Origin: Thermoplasmata archaeon
Lineage (GTDB): Archaea; Thermoplasmatota; B47-G6
Reading direction: 5' to 3'
Assembly: GCA_003663585.1 (NCBI GenBank)
Contig: QMTU01000001.1
Span: 1 to 27,386 of the forward strand
Length of the DNA stretch: 27,386 bases
The translations under genes were made by a program, and so were the position numbers. The notes under the pieces are model-generated. The model did not search any database and had not been told where the DNA came from. It saw only the letters and a program-made list of their open reading frames with translations. Below, piece after piece: positions 11,937-19,888 of the stretch (position 1 is the stretch's first letter; every line of letters begins with the position of its first letter).

Positions 11937-12599
11937 TTACTCCACAGAGATTTCATTTGTAAGCAAGTTATACTGTACATCCTTGTCGATTGGCAGTTCT
12001 CTAAGCCACTTTGCCATTGTTCCCGTCATTATGCCGGCAGCTACGTTACTACTGTAGATAGTTGTCTTTGCTGTGCATGATCCGCGATAGGCGTCTTCAG
12101 ATGAGAATAACGTAGTCCTGTAGTGGTTTTGGCTGTCAAGATTAAATACACTTAGCACTCTTAATACTTCTGCCGACATGCGGCCGTCGATAAAGAGTAC
12201 TGCTGTATTCTGTGTCGCAGTGAAGATTAGATCTCGAATATCCATATCATCTACACAGCAGAAAATAATCTCACCAGTGTTCATTCTCCGTCGAAAGCGA
12301 TCATTGACAACTTCTATTTCTACCTCGCTATTAATAGACTTAAGAAGCTCTGCTACTGCCTCTACTTTAGGTTTGCCGAGATCGCTTTCAAAGAATCCTT
12401 GAGCAGCCAGGTTACCGGTTTCGACTGTGTCAAAATCAATGAGCTGAATCTTAGGCACGCCCATAGCCGCTAACTGTATGGCTACTTGTCGACCAATCGC
12501 ACCGACTCCGATTACCGTGACAGTCTTATCTTGCAGTGTTTCTAGAGGAACCAGGTCCTTTTGCCGGCTATACCGTACCTCGGTATCAATTTCAGGCAT
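11937..12599 (-). CDS. ThiF/E1-like Ubl-activating enzyme
   Basis: RYSRQ, VIGVGAIG, IDFDTVETGNL, KPKV, CCVD, DGRM, candidate catalytic Cys in GSCTAK; start refined to ATG 12599. Confidence 0.9.
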   Translation of the reverse strand: MPEIDTEVRYSRQKDLVPLETLQDKTVTVIGVGAIGRQVAIQLAAMGVPKIQLIDFDTVETGNLAAQGFFESDLGKPKVEAVAELLKSINSEVEIEVVNDRFRRRMNTGEIIFCCVDDMDIRDLIFTATQNTAVLFIDGRMSAEVLRVLSVFNLDSQNHYRTTLFSSEDAYRGSCTAKTTIYSSNVAAGIMTGTMAKWLRELPIDKDVQYNLLTNEISVE

Positions 12600-13656
12600 T
12601 TTCTTTCTCCTCTTCAAAGACAACAATCTGGTTTTCGTCTACTTGATCCCGCGACACGGCTACCAAACGCTCATCTCTATCATAGTAGCATACATAATCA
12701 TCTATTTCGTTTTCCTGGATGTCCAGCTGCTGAAGCAGGATAAGCCTTTCCTCAATCGGTTCATCTTCCAACTCGTCTCTCAGAGACCAGAAGAATTCTG
12801 GCATTTCGTCATTCGCCAACTCTTCTTCCTCTTCTTCTGCAAAATTACTAGCCCAGCTATATAGATCGTAGTCTACAGCCTCGTCAAATTGTGTCGACGG
12901 AGGGAACTTTCTAGTGCCATATAAAGGGCCATAGGGTTTGGTAGAATGCCAGTCGGGTATTCCCTTTGGCATATTCATATAGCCGTGCTTGGAATAAGTA
13001 TTATGCGTAGTCAGAAATATTTCCCGCTTCTCAATATTCTTGTCATACTCTGCTTTCCAGGCAGCATGATCACTGGCCGCGAAGGGTAAGCTCCAATCAA
13101 TTTTAACCTTAAGATCGAATTGGGCTTTTATTCCGGTACCATATTGCAATCTTGCAGTCATCTCCCCACCTTTGCCAAGAATTGCCATGACTGACCAATC
13201 GCATTTTCCGAACTTCTCTCTAAACGTTTTCTCGTCAGTACCGCTTGGATTGGCACTCATACCAGGATGCGTGTGAAACCAGATCCTTCCAAATTCATCT
13301 GGTTTTCGACCAGCATCTACCTGGTCTTCGAAGAAGTCGGCAATACCAATGTCGTCGAATTCAACTGTTGCAGCCGTGGTCTTTTGCTTGACCGTAAACA
13401 GATCAATTACAGCCAGAGGATCATCAGATCTGGAGATGCCGAATGCGCCGACTTCTGTGTCGCCTAGATCGCGCAAGTATGTCAATTTAGCCCATACATA
13501 CGGGGAAAGCCGTAGCTCGGGGTTGTGTGAGACTGATATCTTACTCGAAACTGTCGGAGTTTGTATTTTCCAAGACTCTTTTGTCTGTGGTCTGTTATCA
13601 ACTTTGGCAATAAATCCCAACTTTTCCTTCTTCTTCTTTTTCTTCTTCTTGCCCAT
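12592..13656 (-). CDS. JAB/JAMM metallo-isopeptidase with acidic C-terminal extension
   Basis: TEVG...WFHTHPGMSANPSGTD matches E...HxHx7SxxD; start refined to ATG 13656 (GGAGG RBS). Confidence 0.88.
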   Translation of the reverse strand: MGKKKKKKKKEKLGFIAKVDNRPQTKESWKIQTPTVSSKISVSHNPELRLSPYVWAKLTYLRDLGDTEVGAFGISRSDDPLAVIDLFTVKQKTTAATVEFDDIGIADFFEDQVDAGRKPDEFGRIWFHTHPGMSANPSGTDEKTFREKFGKCDWSVMAILGKGGEMTARLQYGTGIKAQFDLKVKIDWSLPFAASDHAAWKAEYDKNIEKREIFLTTHNTYSKHGYMNMPKGIPDWHSTKPYGPLYGTRKFPPSTQFDEAVDYDLYSWASNFAEEEEEELANDEMPEFFWSLRDELEDEPIEERLILLQQLDIQENEIDDYVCYYDRDERLVAVSRDQVDENQIVVFEEEKENA

Positions 13657-13669
13657 AAGGATCCTCCTG

Positions 13670-14428
13670 TTATTTTTGACTAGAACAGTAATGACACAAT
13701 GGTCGTTCGTTATAGTAACACGATGACTGTTCGCTACAATCATCACTTTCGTATATTACGCAACCTTCACATAGCTCATCACCACACCGATCGCAATATA
13801 TAACATCTTCGGCGGGAATAATGTCTCCACAGTCGCAACAAGTAGCCCCGTCCCATAAGTGTACATGTATGTATGCTTCAGTAGCTTCATACGATCGAAG
13901 TATGCTTTCCAGAATATCCACCATACTAAACACATCATTTCTATTTGCCGCGCTTCTTAATGCATTCGTGCCACGTCCTGTACATACTATTCCTGCCGGA
14001 TCAACGTGTGGATGAAAATATCCAGAGCCATTCGAGAAGTATGGGGTAATAGGATATGCATGAACTCCCAGAAAGCTTTTGTCAATTCTAAAGGGACCTA
14101 TTCCCAAGTAGAATGGACCAAAGTCTATGCCGTCAAAAACAATACGACGTGTCGGTCCAACGAGAATGAAGTCGTCTTTGTATATACTATAGACGTTTTG
14201 ATGGTGGGCAAGAAACACTCTCTTTGTCTTTGCTAATTCTATAAGATCCTCTCCAATACTTGCAGAAATAGAATCAATTGGCGTTTCGGTAAACCAAGCA
14301 CCAAGCTCGATCTGATCTTTTATTCGTGAGACAACTGCTTTTTTGGAAGAAGAAGGAAATATTTGGATGAAACGCTCGAGATGCTTAATCTTATTGTAGG
14401 TGAGCCCATCGTTAGGAATGGTTAGCAT
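13670..14428 (-). CDS. E2/UBC-like protein with C-terminal Cys-rich Zn finger (paralog B)
   Basis: YFHPHVDPAGIVCTG has the spacing of the E2 motif HPNxxxxGxIC; multiple CxxC in the C-terminus. Confidence 0.72.
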   Translation of the reverse strand: MLTIPNDGLTYNKIKHLERFIQIFPSSSKKAVVSRIKDQIELGAWFTETPIDSISASIGEDLIELAKTKRVFLAHHQNVYSIYKDDFILVGPTRRIVFDGIDFGPFYLGIGPFRIDKSFLGVHAYPITPYFSNGSGYFHPHVDPAGIVCTGRGTNALRSAANRNDVFSMVDILESILRSYEATEAYIHVHLWDGATCCDCGDIIPAEDVIYCDRCGDELCEGCVIYESDDCSEQSSCYYNERPLCHYCSSQK

Positions 14429-14465: not shown

Positions 14466-14504
14466 TTTTTGGAGTGCTGACTGCCACGTAACAGTCAGCA
14501 CTCC
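14466..14504 (-). other. 13-bp perfect intergenic hairpin between Ubl and E2-B, followed by A5 on the sense strand
   Basis: GGAGTGCTGACTG-CCACGTAA-CAGTCAGCACTCC (14471-14504). Confidence 0.75.
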
Positions 14505-14516
14505 TGTTGTTTGAGA

Positions 14517-14747
14517 CTAAGCTCCCTGAACCTTCGTAGGGGTGACGGTCATCCGATCGCCAGGCTGCAGCGCATAGCTGGCAGTTACCTCCTGGCGATT
14601 AACACGGATGAGGTAGTCAGCAGGACTGGCACCCTCGCCCATCTCCCGGAAGAACAGCTGGGATGCTGTGGTGCCCTCCTCAACTACCTTTTCGCCGGCG
14701 AATCCAGCGCCTTCGTTGTTAATGAAGCTTACACGGATCTCAGGCAT
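14517..14747 (-). CDS. Ubiquitin-like beta-grasp protein (Ubl-1), C-terminus KVQGA
   Basis: 76 aa, ThiS/MoaD/Ub-like pattern YLIRVN...LQPGDRMTVTP; penultimate Gly; strong AAAGGAGG RBS. Confidence 0.85.
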   Translation of the reverse strand: MPEIRVSFINNEGAGFAGEKVVEEGTTASQLFFREMGEGASPADYLIRVNRQEVTASYALQPGDRMTVTPTKVQGA

Positions 14748-14793: not shown

Positions 14794-16035
14794 CTATTCA
14801 TCTAGAAATCCAGTCCTTCTTTGAACGGTCGATGTCTGTGCCTCTGTCTCTGGCATAGAAATATTTGATATAACTTCTTCATTTTCTATTGGTTTATCCA
14901 AGCTCATAATCAAATCACATATTTTAGCCACTCTTTTTGATCTAGTCTCTTCAATTTGCTTAGCACACTCATGCTTTTTGGAAGACATATAGTGTCTTCC
15001 ACAGAATATTTTCCCGCAGATTTCACACTTTACCGCATACCTGCTTCCTCGATGGTCTGGGCAAATAGTTTTGCCGCATACGCTACATGTGCTCTCTTCT
15101 GCGCATGACTTACACATAGGGCTGTGACAGTAGCTGCATTTACTGGTTTGTTTTCTATCAACCAGCTCCTTGCAAACAGGACACTGAATAGTATGCCAGT
15201 GTACTAATTGTACATAAGGAGACTCTTTGTTATATGTGCGCAATAGGCTATCTAATATTGCAACAATTTCATATAACTCAGCATTATTAAGTTTATCTCT
15301 AATAATTCTAGCTGCATCACCGAGACATATACGACCATCAGTAGAAACGTGGGGATGGTAAAATCCTCTATGTCTTCCGCTGGCGTATTTTGGTGTGGCA
15401 GCCGCCGCTGTTACTTGCGACGAAGATCGGCCAGGATCTCTGGAAAATCCTATATGTAGATAGAACTTACCGAGATCTACTTGTACAGTACGCTTCTTGC
15501 CACCTAGAGTCGTTCTGTATTTTAGCACTATTGGCTTATGTAACAAAATAGATAGCCTTAAGATATATCGAGGAGAGTTAGTGCATATTTCCTGAACCTC
15601 TCCAAAATCTCTTAGTACAGCCGGCAAATCCTCTCTTACCTTCGTAAGTACCTTAGCTTCTCTAATCGGTGCGCACAGTCGTTTTTGCGCGGCCTGAAGA
15701 TGACGTTTTGTATCATACATAACGCCCTCAATACTGTGTATTCCTTTTATAATACCTTCTAGCATACCGCCAATCTCATTATAGAAGATCGTAGGGACAC
15801 TGTTGTTGGTCTCTGTAATCTCCAATATCTTCTGGTATAATGGTGCAATGTCGGATATGTATTTGCGAAACTCGTCGTTGGCGCTGAGTAAACCTTTGTG
15901 ATCGATAATAGATGATAGACTTATTTGGGGCGTCTTGGTAGGTGACGGCAGGTCCTGCAGTAGTTTATCAATATCAGATGAGCTTGGTTGAGTTCCTGCA
16001 TTTTGGATTTGTGCGCCAAAGACCTCATTTGCCAT
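14794..16035 (-). CDS. E2/UBC-like protein with N-terminal helical region and C-terminal Zn fingers (paralog A)
   Basis: FYHPHVSTDGRICLG; C-terminal CPVC, CSYC, CKSC, CSVC, CPDH, CEICGKIFCGRH...HEC; start refined to ATG 16035. Confidence 0.78.
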   Translation of the reverse strand: MANEVFGAQIQNAGTQPSSSDIDKLLQDLPSPTKTPQISLSSIIDHKGLLSANDEFRKYISDIAPLYQKILEITETNNSVPTIFYNEIGGMLEGIIKGIHSIEGVMYDTKRHLQAAQKRLCAPIREAKVLTKVREDLPAVLRDFGEVQEICTNSPRYILRLSILLHKPIVLKYRTTLGGKKRTVQVDLGKFYLHIGFSRDPGRSSSQVTAAAATPKYASGRHRGFYHPHVSTDGRICLGDAARIIRDKLNNAELYEIVAILDSLLRTYNKESPYVQLVHWHTIQCPVCKELVDRKQTSKCSYCHSPMCKSCAEESTCSVCGKTICPDHRGSRYAVKCEICGKIFCGRHYMSSKKHECAKQIEETRSKRVAKICDLIMSLDKPIENEEVISNISMPETEAQTSTVQRRTGFLDE

Positions 16036-16062
16036 TATATCCTCCATGGATGTCTTAGTTTA

Positions 16063-16442
16063 TGGAGCTGGCGGGAGTCGAACCCGCGTCCATGATAGAA
16101 TCCACCAACTTCATACGACCATATCACCTGGTTCTATCTTATATAGCGCCTTTCCCAGGATTTCCTTTGGCGCTCCCTCTATCGCGCACCACCGGGCTTT
16201 TTGGACTAGCATGGGCTAGGTACCCGGAACCCGCTACTTTGGTTACCAGGGCGAGCGCAGCCCTGATGGCTGCTTACGTTTACACGTAAGCGCGGCTGCC
16301 AGACATGGAAGCCATGTCGGCAACCGAAGCCATGAATGCGAGCGAATCGTCGGCATTTGTGAGATGGGCCTTTTTAGAGTGGCCTGCCCAGCCACTAGTC
16401 GTCCATTGGCTTTTTCTAGCATGTCGAACCCTGTTCAGCCCC
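16063..16442 (-). ncRNA. ssrA: tmRNA (380 nt), CCA not encoded
   Basis: 5' GGGGCTGAACAGGGTTCGAC and 3' GGACGCGGGTTCGACTCCCGCCAGCTCCA; 7-bp acceptor stem with G3.U; helix-2 complementarity (ATG-TAGAA/TTCTA-CAT, ACGAC/GTCGT). Confidence 0.95.
16280..16354 (-). other. tmRNA tag reading frame: ADDSLAFMASVADMASMSGSRAYV*
   Basis: Resume codon GCC after ACAAAT; stop TAA in the loop of hairpin GCTTACGT-GTAA-ACGTAAGC. Confidence 0.8.
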
Positions 16443-16450
16443 AAAATGTG

Positions 16451-16678
16451 TTAGCTATCTGAAGTATCTTCTTCTAGCTCAACAAGTTCATAATAGTCAT
16501 GCCAGCTTTTACTGCATGCCAAACATGTCATTGGCTGTTTGGCAGTCCCCTGATCGATTTCTACAAAACCTCCCTGAAGATCATAACTTCCACAATATGG
16601 GCAAGTTACTCCACCCTTTCTTATGTATTCTTTGCATTGGCTGGTGCTAAGCAATTGATATTCCTCCTCTACCACCAA
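16451..16678 (-). CDS. Small Zn-ribbon protein
   Basis: CPYC and CLAC pairs. Confidence 0.65.
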   Translation of the reverse strand: MVVEEEYQLLSTSQCKEYIRKGGVTCPYCGSYDLQGGFVEIDQGTAKQPMTCLACSKSWHDYYELVELEEDTSDS

Positions 16679-16700: not shown

Positions 16701-16964
16701 TTACGAAGCATACGGGTATTCTTCCTCTACTAACAACAGTGCCCATCCATCGGGTGACATTGGATGCTCCCTATTAATGTAGTAGACTCTAGTATATCGT
16801 TGGGGTGCAACTCCGCGCGGCATGGCATCATATTCATCTGCTTTACTATTCCACTCCTCTAACACATCGTCGATACTCTTGCCTTCCTCAACACCCGTAG
16901 TTATAGCACTTTTAATAGCCTGCTGTTCTGCTTCTTCAATACGGCCAAACCCGAGAACGACCAC
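16701..16964 (-). CDS. Hypothetical protein
   Basis: 87-aa ORF, GTG start behind GGAGG. Confidence 0.6.
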   Translation of the reverse strand: MVVLGFGRIEEAEQQAIKSAITTGVEEGKSIDDVLEEWNSKADEYDAMPRGVAPQRYTRVYYINREHPMSPDGWALLLVEEEYPYAS

Positions 16965-17084
16965 TTTGTTTCCTCCTAGTTACTCTCTAGCCATCTTTCC
17001 CAGCATACTGTACATGAATACTCTGCAGTACAGTCGAACCCTTCTCAACCCTTCTATCCTACTTCGATTAGTTGTCACGTTTCT

Positions 17085-17339
17085 CTAAACGGAACTACCC
17101 GTCTCTAGATCCCATAGTGGAAACTTTACAGAAGTAACGGTTACTCGATCGCCGGGCTGTAACCTATGATCTATGGTTATATGTTCGCGATTAACACGAA
17201 CAAGGTACTTGGCGGGGTTGGCATTTTTTCCCATTTCTTGGAAGAATAGATCTGATATCGTTGCACCTTTAGTAATTACCCTTCTGTTAGCAGATGAATT
17301 GCCATTGTCGTCGGTAAGTATTACATAGATTTCAGACAC
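17085..17339 (-). CDS. Second ubiquitin-like protein (Ubl-2) with extended non-Gly tail
   Basis: Clear paralog of Ubl-1 (LFFxEMG, AxPAxYLxRVNR, LQPGDRxTVT); GTG 17339 behind GGAGGAG aligns with the Ubl-1 start; an in-frame ATG at 17393 is an alternative. Confidence 0.75.
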   Translation of the reverse strand: MSEIYVILTDDNGNSSANRRVITKGATISDLFFQEMGKNANPAKYLVRVNREHITIDHRLQPGDRVTVTSVKFPLWDLETGSSV

Positions 17340-18899: not shown

Positions 18900-19139
18900 T
18901 CACTCCTCTTCGACATATACAGCACCTCCCGTAAGCCGGAAGATTGCAACTGGAACAACTACATCTGGATGCGTTTGATCCATCAGATAACGCCAACGTA
19001 CTTCCACTGGTACGTCATCGCGTAGTACAGAATATCGTTTATAGAACGGAGGTAATGGTAGATCAATAATGCGTACATCTGTATACCCATCTTTCCAAAG
19101 GAAGAGTGCTTTTATAGTTGTGTTAGGGTCTGGAAGCAT
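18900..19139 (-). CDS. Hypothetical protein
   Basis: Start refined to ATG 19139, TAATG-coupled to the E2-C stop. Confidence 0.55.
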   Translation of the reverse strand: MLPDPNTTIKALFLWKDGYTDVRIIDLPLPPFYKRYSVLRDDVPVEVRWRYLMDQTHPDVVVPVAIFRLTGGAVYVEEE

Positions 19140-19888
19140 TATAGTCCTCTGTGTGAAGCACAGGCGCTGCAAAAGTGTCTGTCCTTATTAATTATGGCAC
19201 AACGATTACAGATCGGCACCATGCAGCTACAGCAACGTTCATCATTTGCAACTATATTGCCACAGTCTGCACAAGAGTATCCATACCAGTTACCAATTGG
19301 AAAATAAGAGTCTTCTGCGCAGTATGACGAAAGTACGGCCTTGGCAATATCAAGACAACTTACTAAATCATTTCTTCTTGCACTTTTAACAAAGGAGTCG
19401 ACTCCTCTTCCTAAACAAATACTACAGGAGACACTAACGTGGGGATGGAATCGTCTGGGTTCTGGTATTGCATAGACAGGAGATACTGCATATGCTATAG
19501 CACCATAGGACATAGTTGCTCCTCTTGGAGGAGAGGGTGTTATCATAAACCCAATACCTACGAAGAAACGCCCAAGGTTTACTTCGCTAAAAACAATATC
19601 TTCCTTAGTAGGGCCTCCTATAAGGCTAATTACATCGAAGGGTGGCCTGTTATTATATCGGCGTACACCGATAGCTATCTTCTTATACATTTCTAGTAAG
19701 GCGGAGAGGTTTGGCTTAATCTTTGTTTGTACAATCCAAGAAACTCTACGCCTACAGATCGGATATAGCATTGCTGCGCGGATCGCTGGCTTAGCTATTT
19801 GCAAATCATCTTCATTTTCTATGATCAAAAACTGGTTACCCATTAGAGTAATAACGGGGAGGTTCCTGGTTTTTCCTCGAGAGCTCAT
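19139..19888 (-). CDS. E2/UBC-like protein with C-terminal Zn finger (paralog C)
   Basis: RFHPHVSVSCSICLGRG...RNDL...DI...L.SY...W.G..CADCG, colinear with paralog B; start refined to ATG 19888. Confidence 0.7.
   Translation of the reverse strand: MSSRGKTRNLPVITLMGNQFLIIENEDDLQIAKPAIRAAMLYPICRRRVSWIVQTKIKPNLSALLEMYKKIAIGVRRYNNRPPFDVISLIGGPTKEDIVFSEVNLGRFFVGIGFMITPSPPRGATMSYGAIAYAVSPVYAIPEPRRFHPHVSVSCSICLGRGVDSFVKSARRNDLVSCLDIAKAVLSSYCAEDSYFPIGNWYGYSCADCGNIVANDERCCSCMVPICNRCAIINKDRHFCSACASHRGL

Follow-up and report, generated by a model that had tools for sequence, protein, structure and literature searches.

Phage-encoded tmRNA genes (ssrA) are known from Bacillus phage G and mycobacteriophages (PMC4131195) and from the Methylophilales phage Melnitz, whose ssrA lies in an operon with a protein gene immediately after it (PMC9004378); a survey found ssrA in 402 of 18,146 phage genomes (PMC9004378). 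A genomic neighbourhood that joins a gene for a ubiquitin-like (Ubl) protein with trans-translation has also been described, namely the strongly conserved RnfH (ubiquitin-like)-START-SmpA-SmpB cluster of beta- and gammaproteobacteria (Iyer et al. 2006, PMC1779556, Table 1 row 8), and its authors raised a Ubl/trans-translation speculation similar to the one considered here (PMC1779556). This is the only published genomic link of a Ubl gene to trans-translation found in the literature searched, which yielded no link between ssrA and an E2 gene.

In the stretch of 27,386 nucleotides analysed here (the window), an ssrA gene directly precedes an E2-like gene and a Ubl-E2-JAB-E1 operon (Table 1). 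The original prediction read this arrangement as a coupled translation quality-control module. We consider it probable, at roughly 80%, that ssrA and the Ubl operon are two independent accessory systems that have become neighbours through the tight packing of genes on a single strand.

A phage fragment in an archaeal bin

The window is a fragment of a large bacteriophage that was mis-binned in an archaeal metagenome-assembled genome. The bin itself is archaeal, as its RNA polymerase subunit matches archaeal structures, and the tetranucleotide use of the window's contig (C1) departs from that of the bin and groups with contigs C2, C18, C29 and C39. Contig C2 carries genes for a phage DNA polymerase, which from its N-terminal motif we take to be of the DnaE type, a primase-helicase, UvsX/RecA and ribonucleotide reductase. 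No ssrA was found in any of 20 genomes related to the archaeal bin, and this, with the archaeal nature of the bin and the grouping of C1 with the phage-gene contigs, excludes ssrA as a host gene. The five grouped contigs amount to about 76 kb of large-bacteriophage contamination; a further contig of the bin, C4, also looks viral and differs from the C1 group. On bin contig C61 the frame of archaeal RNA polymerase subunit B is 1705 aa long, against about 1120 aa in solved homologs, and the excess length suggests that it may contain an intein.

The same gene order at the ssrA-E2-A junction is present in independent, approximately 99% identical assemblies of the same population, which rules out an assembly artefact, and the junction sequence is identical in the two independent assemblies that were aligned. 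Within this population, the 87-aa gene varies between strains by an in-frame indel of 27 nt. Scans of viral contigs with E2-A and DnaE gave no closer relative (no phage at all with DnaE), and the searches as a whole yielded only these approximately 99% identical strains and no relative at intermediate distance.

Table 1. Features of the locus, from upstream of ssrA to the end of the operon (window positions)
Feature	Position	Strand	Basis
E2-C paralog, nine genes upstream of ssrA	19139..19888	-	
Ubl-2 paralog (start uncertain, 17339 or 17396)	17085..17339	-	
87-aa gene	16701..16964	-	
Small Zn-ribbon gene, ends 8 nt before ssrA	16451..16654	-	
ssrA, one-piece tmRNA gene	16063..16442	-	ARAGORN, Rfam RF00023, sequence
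Tag reading frame, 24 codons, ending -SRAYV	16280..16354	-	ARAGORN, folding
Trailer/leader, 27 nt, unstructured, with GGAGG at 16045-16041	16036..16062	-	sequence, folding
E2-A, 413 aa: long helices at the N terminus, an E2/UBC-like core (HPH...C motif) and a Cys-rich Zn array	14794..16035	-	
Ubl-1, 76 aa, Gly-Ala end as in its family; first gene of conserved operon	14517..14747	-	
15-bp hairpin between Ubl-1 and E2-B, A-rich tail	14471..14504	-	folding z -4.56
E2-B, 252 aa, at position of the family's single E2	13670..14428	-	
JAB/MPN+ peptidase (start uncertain; longest frame to 13746)	12592..13689	-	
E1-like ThiF-family enzyme, 220 aa, single adenylation domain, invariant Cys175	11937..12599	-	

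ssrA, its tag and the junction with E2-A

The ssrA gene scores 104.3 bits with the Rfam RF00023 model (cut-off 47) and covers the whole of it (model positions 1-374). Both hallmarks of a tmRNA, a tRNA-Ala-like domain and a tag frame with its stop in a hairpin, are present; the 7-bp acceptor stem is intact and contains the G3.U pair that is the alanine determinant, and the T-arm is normal with a T-loop. CCA is not encoded at the 3' end, and the same holds for 30 of 70 viral contexts that match this ssrA 3' pattern. The tag lacks the standard short form ending in -AA, and its extra codons fall in a long hairpin of about 14 bp (region z -3.98); in one strain a Met to Thr change in this hairpin also breaks one pair. 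Such tags are common among viral tmRNAs: of 52, 8 have tags of at least 20 residues and 16 have tags with an ending other than AA. smpB and sspB were not found in the bin, and since bin and phage are both incomplete this does not imply their absence. We also note an imperfect (16 of 19) copy of the ssrA 5' end at 17033-17051, in the gap after Ubl-2 and 610 nt upstream; it was noticed post hoc in a low-complexity stretch, occurred in none of 100 shuffles and has no RNA family match.

Several details of the locus had been described correctly from the outset. The gap from the discriminator base (16063) to the E2-A ATG at 16035 is indeed 27 nt, there is no terminator in it (no minus-strand site is listed and the folding z values are -0.27 and +0.51), and the Ubl-2 and E2-C genes upstream of ssrA are true paralogs of the operon genes (Ubl-2 to Ubl-1, 49% identity, E 1e-20; E2-C to E2-B, 29%, E 6e-22). 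The GGAGG lies 5 nt before this ATG and no such site precedes the in-frame ATG at 16047, so 16035 is likely the E2-A start.

This spacing is no more than the packing of the contig would give. All its long ORFs are on the minus strand, with a median gap of 5 nt between genes and 42 of 51 gaps at or below 27 nt, and the gene upstream of ssrA is closer to it than E2-A is. Between 9000 and 22000 the minus strand has a single terminator-like site, itself inside a gene, and thus a missing terminator is the default here. A promoter scan was at chance level (25 found, 24.2 expected). Among 16 other viral one-piece tmRNAs an ORF starts within 60 nt downstream in 6, and in two related phages with both operon and ssrA the next ORFs begin 14 and 38 nt after ssrA and are unrelated to the Ubl system. 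On the other hand, for one pre-chosen pair of genes the prior for direct adjacency is low, about 0.5-1% per genome of 200-400 genes, although the present pair was picked post hoc. On the other side of ssrA, searches with the 87-aa gene returned only same-population strains and distant homologs in other, unrelated gene contexts, with no Ubl-operon gene among their called neighbours.

The Ubl operon and ssrA in related genomes

The operon genes were identified with Pfam and PADLOC, which recognised E1/ThiF and JAB and gave weak matches to E2 and Ubl. More than 4000 homologs of the operon E1 were found at E<=1e-30, and an E1 alignment was used to fetch 47 viral, 80 genome (mostly Planctomycetota) and 80 metagenome loci. 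The order conserved in these relatives is Ubl-E2-JAB-E1, so the operon begins at Ubl, and not at E2-A as had been supposed. None of the relatives' operon loci has an E2 in front of Ubl, and the position of E2-A is thus local to this phage, in which both genes are duplicated to give three E2 and two Ubl paralogs. Many of the copies in cellular genomes are located on DNA that looks mobile.

The HPH...C motif is kept in 145 of 150 family E2s. E2-A has 5 CxxC motifs in its Cys-rich tail and the median in relatives is 10, so the relatives' Zn arrays are as long or longer with no ssrA nearby; the array is family-wide and hence not an adaptation to this tag. In a FastTree tree E2-B and E2-C are sisters (support 0.98), and E2-A has no firm placement; deep support in this tree is weak. 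A structure model of E2-A (pLDDT 76.5) has long N-terminal helices, an E2-like core and Zn knuckles; a fold search with it gave no match at E<=0.001, and its best matches, weak at E 0.03 and above, are mostly E2/UBC proteins with no tag-adaptor among the top ones. A protein search with E2-A gave one other homolog at E<=1e-10; it is distant, and the called genes of its operon leave no room for ssrA before E2.

Whole-record Rfam searches found five phages (120-181 kb) that carry both the Ubl-E2-JAB-E1 operon and ssrA; these are probably mutually related as one group, distant from the window phage. In all five, ssrA and operon are far apart (65, 73, 75, 74 [89 linear] and 102 kb) and on opposite strands, the genes after ssrA differ, and the tags readable in two of them both end in -AA. 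Among 10 near-complete operon phages above 150 kb, 4 have an ssrA above the cut-off and the other 6 have none that reaches it. Of the five phage tmRNAs detected with Rfam, ARAGORN failed to call three, so we relied on the Rfam searches and on an nhmmer tmRNA profile built from 20 cellular ssrA genes of cassette genomes; permuted tmRNA calls made at relaxed ARAGORN thresholds were noise. As controls, the profile found all five phage ssrA genes at E<1e-29 and the 3' end of the window ssrA at E 0.002. Over 209 operon loci (2.5 Mb) it gave nothing below E 0.88, neither an ssrA nor a 3' fragment of one, and no tmRNA was present at the 104 loci (some of them duplicates or close kin) that have E2, JAB and E1 together with at least 2.5 kb of upstream sequence.

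The converse searches agree. No operon protein matched in 92 loci with an ssrA-end match, and this E1 was in none of 50 viral records picked by the ssrA-end pattern. Of 36 cellular genomes that carry the cassette, 35 have an ssrA, and where both could be placed on the chromosome they are 0.28-2.3 Mb apart. ssrA and the Ubl operon thus do not show conserved co-occurrence and adjacency across genomes, and the ssrA-E2-Ubl synteny, whose recurrence in relatives carrying both was the test put forward at the outset, occurs in none of the five phages and in none of the 209 loci.

Some further phages deserve mention. One group of 160-180 kb phages has the Ubl-E2-JAB-E1 cassette, and tRNA genes frequently lie 1-8 kb upstream of it; in several of these phages E1 and ssrA are Planctomycetota-like, which hints at where their hosts may be found. 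In crAss-like and Flavobacterium Fpv phages a distant ThiF gene lies behind a metalloprotease-like gene and beside the primase, and Flavobacterium phage FpV4 has a distant JAB-like/ThiF pair with a tmRNA 17 kb away.

A by-product of this comparison is a conserved RNA element of the operon family, a terminator-like hairpin after the Ubl gene. A stem of at least 10 bp occurs just after Ubl in 101 of 119 relatives (6 of 119 in shuffles), with a U-rich tail in 85 relatives, and the window hairpin after Ubl-1 is its positional match. It may act as an attenuator or 3' stabiliser that gives an excess of Ubl over E2, JAB and E1.

Meaning of the adjacency and comparison with known systems

If the two systems are independent, as we think, ssrA would be transcribed inside a polycistronic RNA and its 5' end freed by host RNase P. 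One way for a tmRNA 3' end to mature is trimming after an RNase E-type cut. In organisms with the alternative route, CCA-less precursors are cut endonucleolytically by RNase Z (PMC2777011). Either type of cut, RNase Z or RNase E, followed by CCA addition could produce the ssrA 3' end here, and the mature tmRNA would be charged with Ala, use host SmpB and rescue stalled ribosomes during infection. The downstream RNA would keep a 27-nt leader with its ribosome-binding site intact, as behind any tRNA-like gene. Given the lack of a terminator, the CCA-less 3' end and the location of the ribosome-binding site within the trailer, it is plausible, as the original prediction also proposed, that ssrA and E2-A are co-transcribed and that processing of the tmRNA releases the downstream mRNA; both would be generic for phage ssrA genes. 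The operon, for its part, belongs to a cassette that is widespread among Planctomycetota elements and large phages. By analogy to Bil (PMC10557695), its JAB would trim the terminal Ala of Ubl to expose Gly; E1 would then adenylate Ubl and take it onto a Cys, and E2 would transfer it through its own cysteine to targets probably picked by the E2's Zn array.

A purely regulatory connection is, in our judgement, unlikely. Here the position of ssrA would be under selection because tmRNA maturation cuts the transcript and so sets the amount or lifetime of an E2-A/Ubl-1 mRNA whose 3' limit is the hairpin after Ubl-1, with no link at the protein level. The position of the ribosome-binding site in the trailer of a CCA-less tmRNA would suit such a cut, and a hairpin of this strength could delimit the segment, but this hairpin goes back to the ancestral operon and occurs where there is no ssrA, a missing CCA is as common as noted above, and the arrangement is not conserved.

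Coupling of the two systems is less credible still. It would have to be specific to this lineage: the non-standard tag would escape host ClpXP and be read by the Zn array of E2-A, and Ubl-1 would be attached to the rescued products, by analogy to Ltn1 in the ribosome quality control of eukaryotes. That ssrA adjoins E2-A, that the tag has 24 residues and no -AA, that E2-A has diverged from other E2s and has few close homologs and that a Ubl gene, RnfH, is conserved beside smpB in proteobacteria (PMC1779556) are all in keeping with it. Set against these are the lack of linkage in any relative (five phages, 104 and 209 loci), the frequency of long or non-AA tags in viral tmRNAs whose loci have no Ubl-operon gene, the family-wide Zn array, the weak, mostly E2/UBC structural matches of E2-A among which no tag-adaptor ranks near the top, and the single strain in which a tag residue has changed from Met to Thr. 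Were coupling true it would be the first prokaryotic link of trans-translation to ubiquitin-type conjugation, would place ubiquitin-style ribosome quality control in viruses that infect bacteria and would give orphan E2s their first defined substrate class. It counts against independence that no relative at intermediate distance was found and that the five informative phages are probably one group with ordinary -AA tags, so that a link peculiar to this lineage keeps a small probability. The tag of the window is also long and lacks -AA, and the three E2 paralogs suggest a widened substrate range.

It is equally improbable that the junction marks a recombination point, a matter of history and not of function, at which the Ubl cassette entered at the 3' end of ssrA, a site used by many islands, or ssrA and two small genes were inserted between Ubl-2 and E2-A: relatives have Ubl followed by E2, and the long E2 of the family is similar to E2-A, so Ubl-2 and E2-A might be a split pair, and the partial 5'-end copy after Ubl-2 and the mobile setting of many cellular cassettes fit such an event, but the 19-mer was spotted post hoc, the ssrA 3' end is single-copy in window and bin with no att duplication (in a fragmentary phage genome), no integrase was recognised by inspection among the window ORFs, none of the 209 loci has an ssrA 3' fragment, and the sisterhood of E2-B and E2-C does not fit a simple tandem duplication.

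Independent systems therefore remain our preferred reading, and the adjacency should not be read as a module, given the absence of linkage in relatives and the occurrence of the Zn array throughout the family. It adds one phage ssrA inside a polycistronic run; the separate parts, a phage Ubl cassette with three E2s and an odd tag, are of more interest.

Like the ssrA genes of phage G, mycobacteriophages and Melnitz, that of the window is a complete tmRNA gene in a large phage, with no smpB found beside it, and as in Melnitz a protein gene follows at once; it differs in being one-piece and CCA-less, in its 24-residue tag ending -SRAYV and in having an E2 as its downstream gene. The RnfH-SmpB neighbourhood is conserved and includes smpB without E1, E2 or JAB; the window, by contrast, carries a complete conjugation cassette without smpB, and its arrangement is not conserved. 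Eukaryotic ribosome quality control (Ltn1/Listerin, NEMF/Rqc2) and bacterial RqcH share with the window only the idea of marking stalled products, and no RING E3, NEMF/RqcH or ribosome-binding domain was detected here. In the bacteria studied, a chain tagged by tmRNA leaves the ribosome through normal termination, and no conjugation step is known to be required.

With respect to conjugation, the operon is not a Bub system (class 6E): that class has BubE/DUF6527 and Ser/Tyr oxyester chemistry, whereas the E1 and E2 of the window have invariant Cys residues and no DUF6527 match occurred among the operon genes scanned. The closest likeness is to BilABCD (types I and II; PMC10557695) and class 6d of Iyer et al. 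2006, which also have Ubl, E2, JAB and E1 in one operon. As in BilABCD, the Ubl ends in Gly-Ala (as BilA does), E1 and E2 are of the Cys type and there is no separate E3. The window operon differs from it in that its E1 is a 220-aa single ThiF adenylation domain rather than IAD-AAD-CYS, in that its E2 keeps the classical HPH...C motif together with a Zn array, and in being phage-borne, with three E2 and two Ubl paralogs.
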